From NCBI GenBank assembly GCA_035285865.1, contig JAYKHS010000015.1:14453-78452 (forward strand): a DNA stretch of 64,000 nt, given 5' to 3'. Position 1 is the first letter of the stretch, and each line of letters starts with the position of its first letter. The notes below the pieces were generated by a model that worked only from the letters and a program-made list of their open reading frames with translations, was not told where the DNA came from and ran no database searches. Source of the DNA: Candidatus Sericytochromatia bacterium (GTDB lineage Bacteria; Cyanobacteriota; Sericytochromatia; S15B-MN24; VGJW01). Position numbers and translations under genes: made by a program. This document shows positions 29,944 through 40,207 of this stretch, piece by piece.

Positions 29944-32391
<2,448 letters not shown>

Positions 32392-32406
32392 TCAGCCCGA
32401 ATGCAC

Positions 32407-32441
32407 GCGGGGCCTGTCCGGGACAACCGGGCAGGCCCCGC
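32407..32441. terminator. GC-rich hairpin between convergent ahcY and the Rdx gene
   Basis: GCGGGGCCTGTCCGG-GACAA-CCGGGCAGGCCCCGC. Confidence 0.6.
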
Positions 32442-32454
32442 CATCTTGAGGGCT

Positions 32455-32679
32455 TCAGACCAGCGGGCGCAGCCGGTCGAGGACTTCGGGTCCCTCCGGA
32501 AACTCGCCGGTCTCGTGCTTGGAATACAACAGCGCCTGACCGGCGTGCACGTCGAAGATGCCGCGGCTGCCGGGCACCAGGGTCACGGTGACGGGAAACT
32601 CCTGCTTGATGAGGGCCGCCAACCTGGTGGCCTCGGGCAGGTAATCTCACATCGTGCAGTAGGTAATCCGAATATCCAT
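32455..32679 (-). CDS. Rdx family (SelW/SelT/SelH-like) selenoprotein, 74 aa, Sec at codon 11
   Basis: Manual translation MDIRITYCTM[UGA]DYLPEATRLAALIKQEFPVTVTLVPGSRGIFDVHAGQALLYSKHETGEFPEGPEVLDRLRPLV*; AAGGTG RBS; SECIS-like hairpin. Confidence 0.88.
32601..32646 (-). promoter_or_regulatory. bacterial SECIS-like element
   Basis: Directly 3' of UGA: CCUGC..GAGGCC-A-CCA-[GGU]-UGG-C-GGC(C)CUC..GCAGG; apical loop 22 nt from UGA. Confidence 0.7.
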
Positions 32680-32731
32680 GTCCGGCACCTTACGGCAAAC
32701 CGCTTGGCCTCGCAAGGTGATAAAGTGGACC

Positions 32732-34240
32732 ATGCCCAACAGTGCGACAGAGCGTCCCGAGTTCCGTTCCTTTCATCTTCGGCGTGAACTCCTCGAGGGC
32801 CTTGCAGAGATGGGCTATGCCACGGCGACGCCCGTGCAGGCCCTCGCCATTCCCTCCGTTCAGGAGGGGGGTGACTGGTTGGTCCAGGCCAAGACCGGTT
32901 CTGGCAAGACGCTGGCCTTCGGTCTGCCTCTGCTGAATCGTGTCGACCTGCATCGGCCGGACTGCCAGGTCCTGGTCGTGGTGCCGACGCGTGAACTGGC
33001 GCTGCAAGTGGCAACCGAACTCGAACGCGCGGGCGCGTCACTGGGCATCGTCATCGGGGCCGTCTTCGGCGGCATTCCCATCAAGGAACATGTCACGACG
33101 GCGCAGTGGGCAACGGTGCTGGTCGGCACGCCCGGGCGCCTGCGGGACTTGCTCGAGCGCGGCATGCTGCGGCTTGACCATGTGCGGTCGGTGGTTCTCG
33201 ACGAGGCCGACGAGATGCTGGACATGGGCTTCAAGGTCGACCTCGAGTTCATCCTCGATGCCGCGCGTCAACGCCAACAGACCCTCTTCTTCTCGGCCAC
33301 CTTCCCGCCCGAAATCCTGAAGATCGCCAAGCGCACCCTCAAGGATCCCCGTCGTCTGCAGGCCCAGCCCGAGGAGCAGACGCCCACCACCATCGAGCAT
33401 CGTGTGGTCCGGGTCAGCCAGGAGAAGAAGTTCGAGGCGCTCGCCCGTTTGCTCAAGGGTGAACACGTCACCCAGGGCATCATCTTCTGCAACACCAAGA
33501 CCGAGACTCCGTGGCTGACGCGCCGTCTTCGTGCCCAGGGCTTTTCTGCCGACTGCATCCACGGTGACATGGGCCAGCAGGACCGCCTGAAGGTCATGGA
33601 CCGCTACAAGGCTCAGGGCTTCACGATTCTGGTGGCGACCGAAGTTGCGGCGCGGGGCCTCGACATCGCCGGCATCAGCCACGTCGTCAACTATTCGGTG
33701 CCCAATAACCCCGAAGTGTACTTCCATCGCTGCGGTCGCACCGGCAGAGCCGGACGCAGCGGCGTCGCGATCACGATGGTGACGCCGCCCGAGGAGCGGC
33801 AGTTTGCCCGGATCGAGGAGGCGCTGGCTGCCCGCAGGCCCAAGGGTGTCAAATCGGAGAAGCCGGCTGCGCGCGCCGAGGCCCCGACTGCGTCCCCAGA
33901 CCGCGCCGAGTCTGCCCGCGTTGCCGAACCGGCACGTGGTGAGGGGCGGGCACCTTCACGGGAACCTGCTTCCCGCGAGCGTCCGGCATCGCAGGCCGAC
34001 AATCGTGACCGTGCTCCCCGCGAGCCGCAACCTGAGCGCAACGGTGCACGGAGCCGCAATCGCGGAAAGGGGCTCAAGGTCGCCTCGGATGATCTCATCG
34101 CCTATGCCGGGTCGACGGCCGATGCGCACCACGCGCTGGCGCGCCACCTGCTTCACGCCGGTGATCCCGTCACGCTGGTGTCTGCGTTGCTGGCCGTGCA
34201 TCCGCTCGTGCACGAGGCCGCCCGGCAGCAACAGTCCTGA
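32732..34240 (+). CDS. DEAD-box RNA helicase
   Basis: TPVQ, AKTGSGKT, PTRELA, TPGR, DEAD, SAT, AARGLD, HRCGRTGRAG. Confidence 0.95.
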   Translation: MPNSATERPEFRSFHLRRELLEGLAEMGYATATPVQALAIPSVQEGGDWLVQAKTGSGKTLAFGLPLLNRVDLHRPDCQVLVVVPTRELALQVATELERAGASLGIVIGAVFGGIPIKEHVTTAQWATVLVGTPGRLRDLLERGMLRLDHVRSVVLDEADEMLDMGFKVDLEFILDAARQRQQTLFFSATFPPEILKIAKRTLKDPRRLQAQPEEQTPTTIEHRVVRVSQEKKFEALARLLKGEHVTQGIIFCNTKTETPWLTRRLRAQGFSADCIHGDMGQQDRLKVMDRYKAQGFTILVATEVAARGLDIAGISHVVNYSVPNNPEVYFHRCGRTGRAGRSGVAITMVTPPEERQFARIEEALAARRPKGVKSEKPAARAEAPTASPDRAESARVAEPARGEGRAPSREPASRERPASQADNRDRAPREPQPERNGARSRNRGKGLKVASDDLIAYAGSTADAHHALARHLLHAGDPVTLVSALLAVHPLVHEAARQQQS

Positions 34241-36808: not shown

Positions 36809-39800
36809 TCAAGTTAGCTGGAAGTGCCAGGTCAGGTTGTGGTTGCTGTCCACCTCGACCACATGGTTGGCACCGGCATGGTGGACCATCGTTCGCCCGG
36901 ACTCCAGTCGCCACGCCAGCACAGGTGTCAGCATCTGCATCTGGAAACGGCCCTTTCGACCGTAACAGGCCGCGGCGCCCCCGTACTGCCAGACCAGCTT
37001 GCCGGACACATCCAGTTCGATGACCCTATGATTCTGCGTGTCGGCAATCAGCGTGTGTCCGTTGGCAAGCCGCGTCGCGTGCTCGGGGTGGAACAGCTGC
37101 CCGTGGGCATTCCCCGCGTTGCCGGGCTGTCCGAAGGCCCAGACGGTCCTGCCCTGGGCGTCGAACTCGTAGACGGCATGTCCGCCCCAATCCGTGACCA
37201 GGACATGACCGTTGGCGAGGCGCGTGGCGTGGCTGGGCGCGGCGAGGTTGTCCTTGCGCCAGATGACATCCTGGCTGACGGTAACCTCGATGACCCGACG
37301 GTTGCCCATGTCTGCGACGAGGAACGTTCCCTGCGGCGTGCGCTCGACGCTTGCCGGCTCGTCCAGCTGCTTGGGGGCTGATCCGCGTTCTCCGATTTTG
37401 CCGAACTGCCAGACGATGGCATTATCCCTGATTTCGATGATGCGGTGGTTCCCGGTGTCTGCAACAAGGGTTCCCCCTTGCGGCGTACGCCACGCATAGC
37501 GGGCCTGAGCAAGGCGCTGGCGCTCGCCGCCGGAAAAGCCGGTGTACTGCCAGCTGATCTGCAGTTTGCGGTCGACCTCGAGCAAGCGATTGCGCGTCCG
37601 GTCGGCGAATAGAAATGCCTCGGGCAGGTTCGGCGGCAGCGGACTGGCGAGGCTTTCGGATGCGGCAGCCTCGCCGGCTGCCATCTCCGCCGGCGTGCCC
37701 TCGGTGGCCTGCACGTCCGCCGAGGCCGGCGGTGCGCCCAGGGACAACTCGCGCAACGGATGGCCTTCCGCGTCGATGCAGACGGCGCCCCCCCTGCCGG
37801 CGATCCACGTGCGGCCCTGGCCGTCCCGCTCGGCGGCGTAGGGGTCGCGGGCGGCGGCTCCCCCACGTGCCGGGGCGATGCGGTGGGCCCAGCGAATCTG
37901 GCGGCCTCCATCCAGCTCGATGACGCGCTGGTTGCCCGTGTCGCAGACCAGCAGGCCGCCATCGGGCAGCAGGCTGATGCCCTGGGGGTCGTTGAGCTGA
38001 CCTGCGCCCGTTCCATGTCCCCCGCCGAGGCGACTCGAGGCGTTGCCGTATTGCCAGAGGACGTCGCCATTGCGCGCGATACCGAGGACGCGATGGTTGC
38101 CCGTGTCCAGGATGACCGTCAGGCCGTCCGGCCTGCGCAAGGCGGCCGTCGGCTTGAAGAGCAGGCCGCGGGCAACGCCGGCCTTGCCGGTCTCGCCGTA
38201 GGTCCACGTGACCTGACCGTCGGGCGTGACTTCGAGGACACGATGCTGGCCCGTATCCACGACCAGCGTGTGCCCGTTCGCCAGGCGCGAAGCGTGTCGG
38301 GGTTGCTTCAGACGCTCGGCGTCGCCACCCCCGAAGCCCCAGACCTCGGTCTGGTTGCGCCTGTCAAACTCGATGGCGCGTCCGAGGTCCAGGTCCACGA
38401 GCAGCACGTTGCCGCCCGGCATCCGGCGAACCATGGCCGGCATGGGCATGCGCTGCGACCAAGTCTCGCTGCCGTCCGGGGCGAGCCCGACGGCCCGGCG
38501 GCGGGGCGGGTCTGCAAGGAGCACCTCGGCGTCGTTGTCTCCGACCCAGACATCGACCGAGCGCTCGTCGGCCGGATCGGGATCGGTTGCGGCGGTCGCG
38601 TCCTCGACCTGAAGCGCCGGCCACGCTGGCTGCGGACTGGCCGGATCGACGACAAGGGCCGGCGGCGCCGATTCCTCGGCGGGTCTGTCCGGGGCTGGTT
38701 GCTCCGGGAGCTGCGGGGACTGGCCGGTACGCAGGGCGGCTGCCTGCTCGAGCAACTGGGAGTAGCGTCCGGTCAGGAACCTGGCAAGCTGGTCCTCGGC
38801 GATGGCGACCGGCGCGGGTTCCGCACCGCCCGCAAGCTGGCTGGCCAGTTGGAGGCCCGTCGGGTCCCTCGGGTCCAGCATGGCAACGATGAGGCGTCCA
38901 TCCTCACGGAATAGGGGCACCATCCCGAGCGAACGCACCATGCGTTCAGGCAACTGGGCGACGACGAGCGGATCCACGCGGCTGTCGTCCAGGGGGCCGG
39001 CATCGGGATCGTTGTCCTTGAGCCGGGCCAGCTCCGCTCTGGTGACGACGCCCATGCCGATGAGGACATCCGTCAGGCTCGGAGTCACAGGCAACCATTC
39101 GCGAACCGGCGGGTGCCCCAGAGTCAGGGGCAGCACGTCGAGGGGGGCGTCCTTCTCAAGCCGTCGCTTCTGCAGGTCGATGGTCAGCAGACGATGGCGG
39201 TCTGCCTGCCCGCCTTCCTGAACCACCACGTTCAGGCGCTGGCCGTCCGGGGATACCCTGAGCGGCTCGATGGGGGCTGCTGCCGAACGACGACCCGGTA
39301 GGTTCAGCAGGTGCCGCACCCGCAGATCAGCCGTCGAGACGGTCAGCAGGCCAAGCTCGTCGCCCGTCCGGTAGAACAGTACGTAGAGCAACTGACCGTC
39401 GGGACTGAGACCGAGCGGACCCAGCGGGCCTGTCGGAAAGTTCTGGAACCGCGGCTTGCCCGTCGTGAGGTCGATGATGCCGAGCCGCGGCGTTTGCCCG
39501 TCCGTGACCCAGCCCTGTCGCCCGAGCACGGCCAGACCCAGGCCCTTGCGTCCCCCGGCCGGGCGAATCTGCAGGGCGGCTGCCTGGGTGCCGGAGGCGG
39601 CCGCAATCACGTGGACGATTCCGGTGCCGCGATTGCCGGCCAGAATGAACTCCCCGCCGGGAGAGGTCGCGAGGTCGATGGGGCCTGCCTGAACCGGAGC
39701 CGGCGACTGGATCGGGCTGGGCAGGCTGAGGATGGACGGGGAGGATGCGCGATTCGGCATGCCGGCCAAGGCAAGGAAACCACCCTGGGACGTGGCGAAA

Positions 39801-40207
39801 AGGCCCGGTCTGACGTTGGCAGGAGCCTGCACGACATCTTCGATGGATGTCCCGTCCAGACTCAGCACCAGCATCCTGCCGTCGGTCCAGCGGGGCCAGT
39901 CGGAGGCGTCCACAGGTTCCCCGGCCTTGACCGATGCCATGACCGTGCCGCGTCTGGGGTCCTTGAAGGGGATGATCTGCGCCGCGTCATCCGGCACCAC
40001 GGCCGGTGGCATCGGGATGGGCCGGGTCACGGTCTCCTGCTGGACGCGCCTCTGGGCCTCCGCCAGTTGGGAAGGCGTGACGAGGCGGGATCGGACGAGC
40101 AAATCGCCAATCAGGGCGTCGTCTGGGGCAGGATTCGTCACGACCGTGGCACCGCGGGACAGGGGACGCCGGGTCCCTTTGACGAAAGGCCCGTGCCTGC
40201 CTATCAT
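36809..40207 (-). CDS. large protein: MshEN/T2SSE_N-like segments, YncE-like propeller and two NHL-repeat regions (start uncertain)
   Basis: IGDLLVRSRLVTPSQL; VAQLPERMVRSLGMVPLFREDGRLIVAMLDP; about 10 repeats of L..P..A.RL.NG.TL(V/I)ADTGNHRV(I/L)E..W.(F/Y)G. Confidence 0.8.
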   Translation of the reverse strand: MIGRHGPFVKGTRRPLSRGATVVTNPAPDDALIGDLLVRSRLVTPSQLAEAQRRVQQETVTRPIPMPPAVVPDDAAQIIPFKDPRRGTVMASVKAGEPVDASDWPRWTDGRMLVLSLDGTSIEDVVQAPANVRPGLFATSQGGFLALAGMPNRASSPSILSLPSPIQSPAPVQAGPIDLATSPGGEFILAGNRGTGIVHVIAAASGTQAAALQIRPAGGRKGLGLAVLGRQGWVTDGQTPRLGIIDLTTGKPRFQNFPTGPLGPLGLSPDGQLLYVLFYRTGDELGLLTVSTADLRVRHLLNLPGRRSAAAPIEPLRVSPDGQRLNVVVQEGGQADRHRLLTIDLQKRRLEKDAPLDVLPLTLGHPPVREWLPVTPSLTDVLIGMGVVTRAELARLKDNDPDAGPLDDSRVDPLVVAQLPERMVRSLGMVPLFREDGRLIVAMLDPRDPTGLQLASQLAGGAEPAPVAIAEDQLARFLTGRYSQLLEQAAALRTGQSPQLPEQPAPDRPAEESAPPALVVDPASPQPAWPALQVEDATAATDPDPADERSVDVWVGDNDAEVLLADPPRRRAVGLAPDGSETWSQRMPMPAMVRRMPGGNVLLVDLDLGRAIEFDRRNQTEVWGFGGGDAERLKQPRHASRLANGHTLVVDTGQHRVLEVTPDGQVTWTYGETGKAGVARGLLFKPTAALRRPDGLTVILDTGNHRVLGIARNGDVLWQYGNASSRLGGGHGTGAGQLNDPQGISLLPDGGLLVCDTGNQRVIELDGGRQIRWAHRIAPARGGAAARDPYAAERDGQGRTWIAGRGGAVCIDAEGHPLRELSLGAPPASADVQATEGTPAEMAAGEAAASESLASPLPPNLPEAFLFADRTRNRLLEVDRKLQISWQYTGFSGGERQRLAQARYAWRTPQGGTLVADTGNHRIIEIRDNAIVWQFGKIGERGSAPKQLDEPASVERTPQGTFLVADMGNRRVIEVTVSQDVIWRKDNLAAPSHATRLANGHVLVTDWGGHAVYEFDAQGRTVWAFGQPGNAGNAHGQLFHPEHATRLANGHTLIADTQNHRVIELDVSGKLVWQYGGAAACYGRKGRFQMQMLTPVLAWRLESGRTMVHHAGANHVVEVDSNHNLTWHFQLT

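Follow-up and report, generated by a model that had tools for sequence, protein, structure and literature searches.

Does the UGA at the eleventh codon of a short minus-strand frame end a peptide, or is it read as selenocysteine (Sec)? The question is raised by a locus in the 64,000-nucleotide stretch of DNA analyzed here (the window), which belongs to a Candidatus Sericytochromatia genome of 2.82 Mb in 32 contigs, 82.7% complete (G000). A preliminary description, made from the letters alone, had proposed a hidden selenoprotein gene of the Rdx/SelW type, in which a hairpin just downstream of the UGA serves as a bacterial SECIS element. Bacterial SELENOW-like proteins of family PF10262 with a CxxU motif are listed as a selenoprotein family "predicted with high confidence" (PMC13188914, Table 1). 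SelW-like proteins were already known in a 2006 survey, in which the Sec trait was not detected in Cyanobacteria (PMC1794560). In this study, we followed the proposal through the reading frame, the conservation of the UGA, the Sec machinery, the RNA structure and the start signal, and then across the phylum. The features of the locus are collected in Table 1.

Table 1. Features of the Rdx/SelW locus and its surroundings, in window positions
Feature	Position	Strand	Remarks
Rdx/SelW-like gene	32455..32679	-	74 aa, Cys8-x-x-Sec11; PF10262, TIGR02174, predicted fold
In-frame UGA, codon 11, probable Sec codon	32647..32649	-	conserved; aligned with Cys of solved homologs
Bacterial SECIS, conserved upper stem-loop	32614..32632	-	GGCC-A-CC / loop AGGUU / GG-C-GGCC
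SECIS loop AGGUU	32625-32621	-	G at 32624 = +23
Covarying pair	32629:32617 (= +18:+30)	-	mutual information, tree
Full hairpin including lower stem	32601..32641	-	lower stem not conserved outside the genus; missing from the consensus structure
Likely -10 box, TAAGGT	32687..32692	-	7 nt before ATG; overlaps AAGGTG
Likely -35 box, TTGCGA	32710..32715	-	17 nt before -10 box; TTGCnn in 4/4 genus genomes
Likely extended -10 of divergent helicase, TG-n-TAAAGT	32718..32726	+	5 nt before helicase ATG
Divergent DEAD-box helicase gene	32732..34240	+	PF00270, PF00271; likely start 32732 from genus conservation
Convergent S-adenosylhomocysteinase gene	31120..32391	+	PF05221, PF00670; start approximate
GC-rich inverted repeat between convergent genes	32407..32441		no U tract; not called as terminator
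Overlapping shadow ORF	32401-32787	+	
Overlapping shadow ORF	32327-32650	-	

Reading frame, family and fold

Re-reading of the minus strand returned the frame as first described: ATG at 32679-77, TGA at 32649-47 (codon 11) and a final TGA at 32457-55. From 32679 to 32455 it reads MDIRITYCTM-TGA-DYLPEATRLAALIKQEFPVTVTLVPGSRGIFDVHAGQALLYSKHETGEFPEGPEVLDRLRPLV-TGA, and the read-through product would have 74 residues (MDIRITYCTM-U-DYLPEA...GIFDV...LYSKHETGEFP...RPLV). The gene had been said to be absent from the ORF track; indeed, a plain ORF list gives at this locus only a 55-residue fragment from a TTG (32622-32455) without the CxxU motif.

The assignment to the Rdx/SelW family by the motifs CxxU, GxF(D/E)V and SK...GxFP is borne out by profile searches, in which the read-through protein scored 67.7 bits with PF10262 (cut-off 22.6) and 48.8 bits with TIGR02174 (cut-off 34.2). 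With the equivalog NF041051 (SelTWH_Campy) it reached 77.7 bits, under the cut-off of 88, so the gene is not filed under that subfamily. The motifs YCTMU and GIFDV are present, and Y7, C8, U11, G40 and F42 are invariant in 19 sequences of the class Sericytochromatia. The predicted fold is thioredoxin-like (beta-alpha-beta-beta-beta-alpha; pLDDT 95.6 in a 19-sequence model with U entered as C) and resembles 2fa8 with a TM score of 0.92 and bacterial SelW-related structures with about 0.9. In this model Cys8 and Sec11 sit where helix 1 begins, and codon 11 aligns with Cys in the solved homologs. From motif and fold, the product is predicted to be a thiol-disulfide oxidoreductase. It is likely cytoplasmic, since its N-terminus opens with a beta strand.

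The protein type is ordinary, another member of the catalogued SelW/Rdx redox family. It shares with bacterial SELENOW-like proteins the Pfam family, CxxU at codons 8-11, GxF(D/E)V, SK...GxFP, a single Sec and an in-frame SECIS. We found no difference in the protein itself; what differs is the host (Cyanobacteriota, Sericytochromatia) and a likely leaderless mRNA. The Cys-type SelW structures 2fa8, 2ojl, 2obk, 2oka, 2p0g and 3dex superimpose with TM scores of 0.89-0.92 and an rmsd of about 1.1 A, with YCxxC aligned, but they have CxxC, about 104 residues as deposited and an insertion before the second strand. Mammalian SELENOW (2npb) and MIEN1 (2ljk) share the Rdx fold, CxxU/C and GxFE(I/V) (PMC10650576). 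The eukaryotic SECIS lies in the 3' UTR, whereas the element described here lies inside the coding frame.

Conservation of the in-frame UGA

Such a frame might reflect an assembly error, or a pseudogene in which TGA arose from a Cys or Trp codon, and nonsense-like changes do occur: TGA replaces a Trp codon in a second Rdx copy of the relative G458, and a nucleotidyltransferase gene on contig C18 of G000 also has a TGA resembling a nonsense change. Conservation speaks against this explanation. The Rdx protein was matched in 19 of 41 related genomes, and TGA was found at YCxx-TGA in all 19 genes, down to 31% identity. When the class was searched with PF10262, 20 of 47 genomes had the gene, each with one TGA, and none of the 20 had a Cys-only homolog; such homologs are likewise described as rare among Sec users (PMC1794560). 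Among the matches listed for named genomes, a biased sample drawn with a single-protein query, there were at least 46 Rdx loci, 45 with TGA and one with TGC. The closest titled locus among them, L033 (Ca. Sericytochromatia), is 75% identical over the part that follows the UGA. The preliminary description had singled out TGC or TGT at 32647-49 as one observation that would tell against it, and neither appeared in the contigs covering the codon. TGA was unchanged in bridging contigs of runs X1, X2 and X5 and, near a contig end, in X3; X1 may be the source sample, while X2 and X5, from two studies, are independent. Finally, the frame downstream of the TGA is intact and its silent sites covary. 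Conservation has thus already refuted a pseudogene or assembly error, to which we leave practically no probability.

Sec machinery

All four genes sought for Sec insertion were present in G000. Lack of selA, selB and selC was the other observation that the preliminary description had named as contrary to it, and this refutation failed too. The match to selA (444 bits) lies on contig C7, adjoined by selB (323 bits), which retains the SelB winged-helix domain. The tRNA-Sec (anticodon UCA, 70.5 bits) is on C12, and selD, on C11, has an in-frame TGA of its own (GG-UGA-AAK). In the complete set of four genes, in the adjacency of selA and selB and in a SECIS that fits the consensus model, G000 resembles the known bacterial system. 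It differs in the selenoproteins found, which comprise a VWD-like protein, SelD and thiol oxidoreductases of small size; no formate dehydrogenase alpha-like selenoprotein was found in the 83% complete genome (PF00384 gave two weak matches without an internal stop).

Two side observations concern the tRNAs. In the Rfam alignment, non-standard pairs occur at the acceptor-stem base of tRNA-Sec (L002:1501-1593; G000:C12:38192-38284), a gene located just before tRNA-Asp. ARAGORN also called, at G000:C17:101305-101395, a tRNA of undetermined type with a four-base anticodon (gccg), which may be false.

UGA reassignment exists in other bacteria, and the residue placed at codon 11 is predicted here from the sequence; genome-wide reading of UGA as Trp, Gly or Cys, or near-cognate read-through, had to be weighed for this reason. 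However, TGA terminates 1,900 of 2,613 gene-like frames in a heuristic scan of G000 and is the commonest stop there. RF2 and tRNA-Trp(CCA) are both present, the only UCA tRNA has the structure of tRNA-Sec, and the Rdx gene tracks selA. G000 is not a UGA-recoded genome, and insertion of a residue other than Sec is very improbable.

A SECIS element inside the coding frame

The preliminary description had pointed to a hairpin formed by the first 46 nt downstream of the UGA and carrying a GGU loop at a distance of 22 nt from that codon. We reproduced it (-18.1 kcal/mol). As a single sequence it exceeds chance by no more than a modest margin (z -2.0, with equally good folding in 10 of 200 shuffles), and what makes the SECIS convincing is its covariation across relatives. 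In the RNAalifold consensus of 19 genes there is a 6-pair upper stem (+15 to +33) closed by a 5-nt loop, nGnnU, with 96% of cells paired compared with 22-67% in slid controls. A first, hand-drawn structure was out of register and did no better than the slid controls; the RNAalifold structure was taken instead.

The strongest signal comes from the pair +18:+30, which joins the third positions of the invariant Ala17 and Ala21 codons. A Watson-Crick pair stands here in all 19 genes, and all four pair types occur, while Ala codon use gives a chance of about 0.30 per gene. Of 9,045 column pairs it has the highest mutual information (1.81; next 1.15). With the hairpin columns left out of the tree, five changes were counted on each side of the pair and five in the pair itself, all of them coupled. 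UGA genes keep on average 5.68 of the 6 stem pairs in this class (19 distinct sequences), 5.35 in other phyla (34 distinct sequences) and 5.33 in family f60, described below (6 distinct sequences). Unlike them, the 12 Cys-codon homologs examined lack the SECIS stem, keeping 2.0-3.2 of 6 pairs and showing no Watson-Crick pair at +18:+30 (0/12). The loop G at +23 is weak evidence alone because it doubles as the middle base of codon 19 and is present in 8 of the 12 Cys-codon genes.

The bSECIS model allows a loop of 3-9 nt with G among its first two positions, a stem of 4-16 bp, a spacing of 16-37 nt and a minimum free energy of at most -7.5 (PMC13188914, section 5). Checked by hand, the element falls within these limits, with a loop AGGUU (or GGU), 6 bp plus one mismatch, a distance of 21-22 nt and -18.1 kcal/mol. 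The comparison of genes leaves the SECIS well supported.

It might still be argued that the UGA is the true stop of a 10-codon leader peptide, followed by a separate 55-residue protein from the TTG at 32622, the start that the ORF list offers. This TTG is not conserved (it is GTG or CTG in other genes), it falls within the loop and stem of the hairpin, and its product would lack both the first strand of the fold and its active site. Two separate products are accordingly a very remote prospect. Family, motif, Sec machinery and SECIS tests are all positive, and the locus is almost certainly a genuine selenoprotein gene, in which UGA is very likely read as Sec in a Cys-x-x-Sec active site.

Start signal and probable promoters

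The letters AAGGTG, which had been taken for a ribosome-binding site, are present at 32691-32686. That reading is doubtful, and they more likely belong to a -10 box, since TAnnnT recurs at the same place in 7 of 7 genes. In family f1, to which the locus belongs, TAnnnT stands at a 7-nt gap before the ATG in all seven Rdx genes, compared with 0 of 12 genes from other families and a background of 0.2%. The boxes (TAAGGT, TATGGT twice, TATAGT, TAAAAT, TAAGAT and TAACAT) hold only T, A and the last T constant. The 12 genes from other families mostly have GGAG or GAGG upstream of the start. Across G000, TAnnnT peaks at gaps of 6 and 7 nt (62 and 23 of 2,050 predicted starts; 3.0% and 1.1%), and it occurs before 0.2% of internal ATGs (n=12,646). 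This peak, at 4% of the 2,050 starts, suggests that a minority of G000 genes are leaderless.

Leaderless genes are recognized by a -10 box 5-8 nt before the start codon together with the lack of a conserved Shine-Dalgarno site. This arrangement was found in all seven family-f1 genes, and because TAnnnT sits 7 nt upstream of the ATG in each of them, the Rdx mRNA of this family is probably leaderless. This step is less sure than the Sec step because a consensus promoter scanner called no site upstream of the Rdx gene. The missing call would also suit an mRNA with an ordinary leader, in which AAGGTG, 6 nt upstream of the ATG, acts as a Shine-Dalgarno site; three of the four genus genomes retain GGTG, and the SD-like 4-mers of G000 peak 6-10 nt upstream of starts. 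Yet GGTG is absent from four of the seven family-f1 genes, in which TAnnnT is always 7 nt from the ATG; other families use GGAG or GAGG, and TAnnnT peaks genome-wide at gaps 6-7. We therefore regard the Shine-Dalgarno reading as unlikely, though with a chance of being right that is far from trivial; it bears on the start alone and leaves the decoding of UGA aside. With four RNA runs, word sharing was only 0.05-0.08.

The neighboring helicase may start in the same manner as the probably leaderless Rdx gene. In all four genomes of the genus, TGn-TA(A/C)AGT lies 5 nt upstream of the helicase ATG. The Rdx and DEAD-box helicase genes, both probably leaderless, are likely to have their promoters back to back within the 52-bp gap 32680-32731. 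Wherever the flank was readable, family-f1 loci retain the divergent helicase. In a comparison of families that left out loci L015 and L017, the neighbors varied (helicase, PP2C, M20 peptidase, PIN, RtcB and CheB). As they differ between families, they point to neither a function nor a substrate. Farther along the window, 36809-40207 (-) encodes a 1,132-residue protein with many short repeats resembling beta-propeller blades.

Other genes with an in-frame UGA

A heuristic scan of G000 for other UGA genes, among the matches listed, gave several candidates. SelD (C11:101139 (-)) has an in-frame UGA. A peroxiredoxin with TPG-U (TxxU; C7:118218 (-)) has TGA in 4 of 4 genus genomes, with a hairpin not above chance. 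A DsbA-like protein with DFV-U-PWC (UxxC; C17:48926 (-)) has both TGA and hairpin in 7 selA-positive genomes; among its homologs, 18 distant loci have Cys and one lacks the motif. A membrane-anchored AhpC/TSA protein has U-GH-C (UxxC; C30:148801 (+)). A further TGA, in a Polbeta/MNT-like nucleotidyltransferase gene (G000:C18, TGA 13516 (-); L082:1173-1580), is probably a nonsense change. At this position an aromatic residue is usual in such enzymes.

The remaining candidate is a VWD-like protein (G000:C11, TGA 28861 (-); L079:2484-3641), in which GDP-U-LEMC replaces GDPH, with an 11-residue insert and a second conserved Cys. Five genomes, down to 39% identity, retain its TGA, and its strong hairpin has the loop G at +22, with z values of -4.2, -3.2 and -1.9 in the three tested. 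Its close database homologs all start after the UGA, and distant relatives are VWD domains with GDPH. The protein had no NCBIfam match of note, no VWD family stands in Table 1 of PMC13188914 (a catalogue of 119 families), and we found no publication on VWD and bacterial selenoproteins in a search whose coverage excluded most subscription journals. Several distant VWD-like paralogs occur in Sericytochromatia genomes (L114, at G000:C17:51361-54591; L100-L119), with up to 8 matches in G004.

Distribution across Cyanobacteriota

In Sericytochromatia, selA exceeded the cut-off in 23 of 47 genomes: 19 had Rdx and selA, one had Rdx only, 4 had selA only and 23 had neither. This co-occurrence is not an independent test because the genomes are kin. 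The single exception, G023, is 81% complete and has a UGA-Rdx gene with neither selA nor selB found over the cut-off; since selA and selB are adjacent in G000, one assembly gap may have removed both.

Outside this class, selA exceeded the cut-off in 0 of 354 genomes of a phylum-wide sample that left out family f60. The view that only Sericytochromatia has Sec is nevertheless ruled out by a second class, centred on G164, in which 87 of 351 genomes had selA over the cut-off; selA matches occurred in 83 of the 104 genomes of f60 and in 0 of 140 of f9. On the basis of GTDB we take this class to be Vampirovibrionia (Melainabacteria). Rdx was found in 64 of 81 f60 genomes, 62 of them with at least one TGA copy, the position being checked in 6 loci. 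Several f60 genomes have 2-3 Rdx copies (L161-L172). Those with Cys branch from within the UGA clade, a placement that suggests a Sec-to-Cys change after duplication.

The photosystem gene psbA was not found in G000 or G003, nor in the three second-class genomes tested. In the class of G131 it was present in all three complete genomes tested and not found in G131 itself; the class is called oxygenic by inference from those three. Here selA was found in 0 of 401 genomes, while 10 of 201 had Rdx, in most cases with no internal stop. The two TGA cases were the broken G458 copy, with TGA at a Trp position, and a CxxU gene with a SECIS-like stem in G461 (L179; G461:C341:1148-1366). The latter lies on a 1.56-kb contig, one of 1,230 in an assembly with no selA or selB over the cut-off, and it may be a contaminant or an exception.

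The SelA tree separates the two classes; 16 of 19 loci gave a row, and with no outgroup ancestry and transfer look alike. In the Rdx tree (71 columns) the class needs two changes, and one origin is also compatible. The trees group this gene with the rest of its family, as vertical descent would predict at such a depth, but leave the trait unrooted.

Discussion

The bacterial Sec pathway (PMC1794560) provides the background for a mechanism that we propose for this gene. Transcription would begin at or next to the ATG, giving a leaderless mRNA. Through its C-terminal winged helix, SelB with Sec-tRNA would bind to the G-bearing loop that lies 21-22 nt past the UGA and deliver Sec at codon 11. RF2 would compete with this step, and a 10-residue peptide would be left when selenium is short. 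In the full-length protein, Cys8 and Sec11 might then cycle between selenol/thiol and selenenyl-sulfide, reducing or swapping disulfides on protein or glutathione partners. A reversible selenenyl-sulfide has been proposed for the Rdx family, whose exact functions are called unknown in the same review, and 14-3-3, a partner of SELENOW, is described there as eukaryote-only (PMC10650576); the partners of bacterial Rdx proteins must therefore differ. Our best guess is that Rdx serves in general thiol maintenance beside the other Sec-type thiol oxidoreductases of G000.

One Sec residue has been noted in a Ca. Melainabacteria protein (PMC9529120). Among the genomes screened for BSepDB the name "Sericytochromatia" occurs eight times, and the database may already have entries for this lineage (PMC13326102). 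Neither "Cyanobacteri" nor "Sericyto" occurs in the accessible text of PMC13188914. We found no publication on Sericytochromatia and selenocysteine, most subscription journals being outside the coverage of the search, and, judged by titles, no bacterial leaderless selenoprotein mRNA with a SECIS. New here are the proof of the SECIS from silent sites, a start that is likely leaderless, and the counts at class level.

As a tentative scenario, with a somewhat less than even chance of holding as a whole, the ancestor of Cyanobacteriota might already have had Sec decoding, with a SelW-type gene among its most constant clients; the two non-photosynthetic classes would have retained it, and the branch toward the oxygenic class would have lost it. 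To this, family f1 would have added a leaderless mRNA with the UGA and SECIS inside its first 65 nt.

Gene callers miss or truncate genes of this kind across the class. Natural variation at the silent-site pair of Ala17 and Ala21 proves a bacterial SECIS stem with unusual clarity, and a UGA at codon 11 of a likely leaderless mRNA would be a compact system for learning how initiation and SelB loading fit together. The gene is a marker of Sec use in non-photosynthetic Cyanobacteriota, and whether Sec was lost with oxygenic photosynthesis thereby becomes a question that can be tested phylogenetically.
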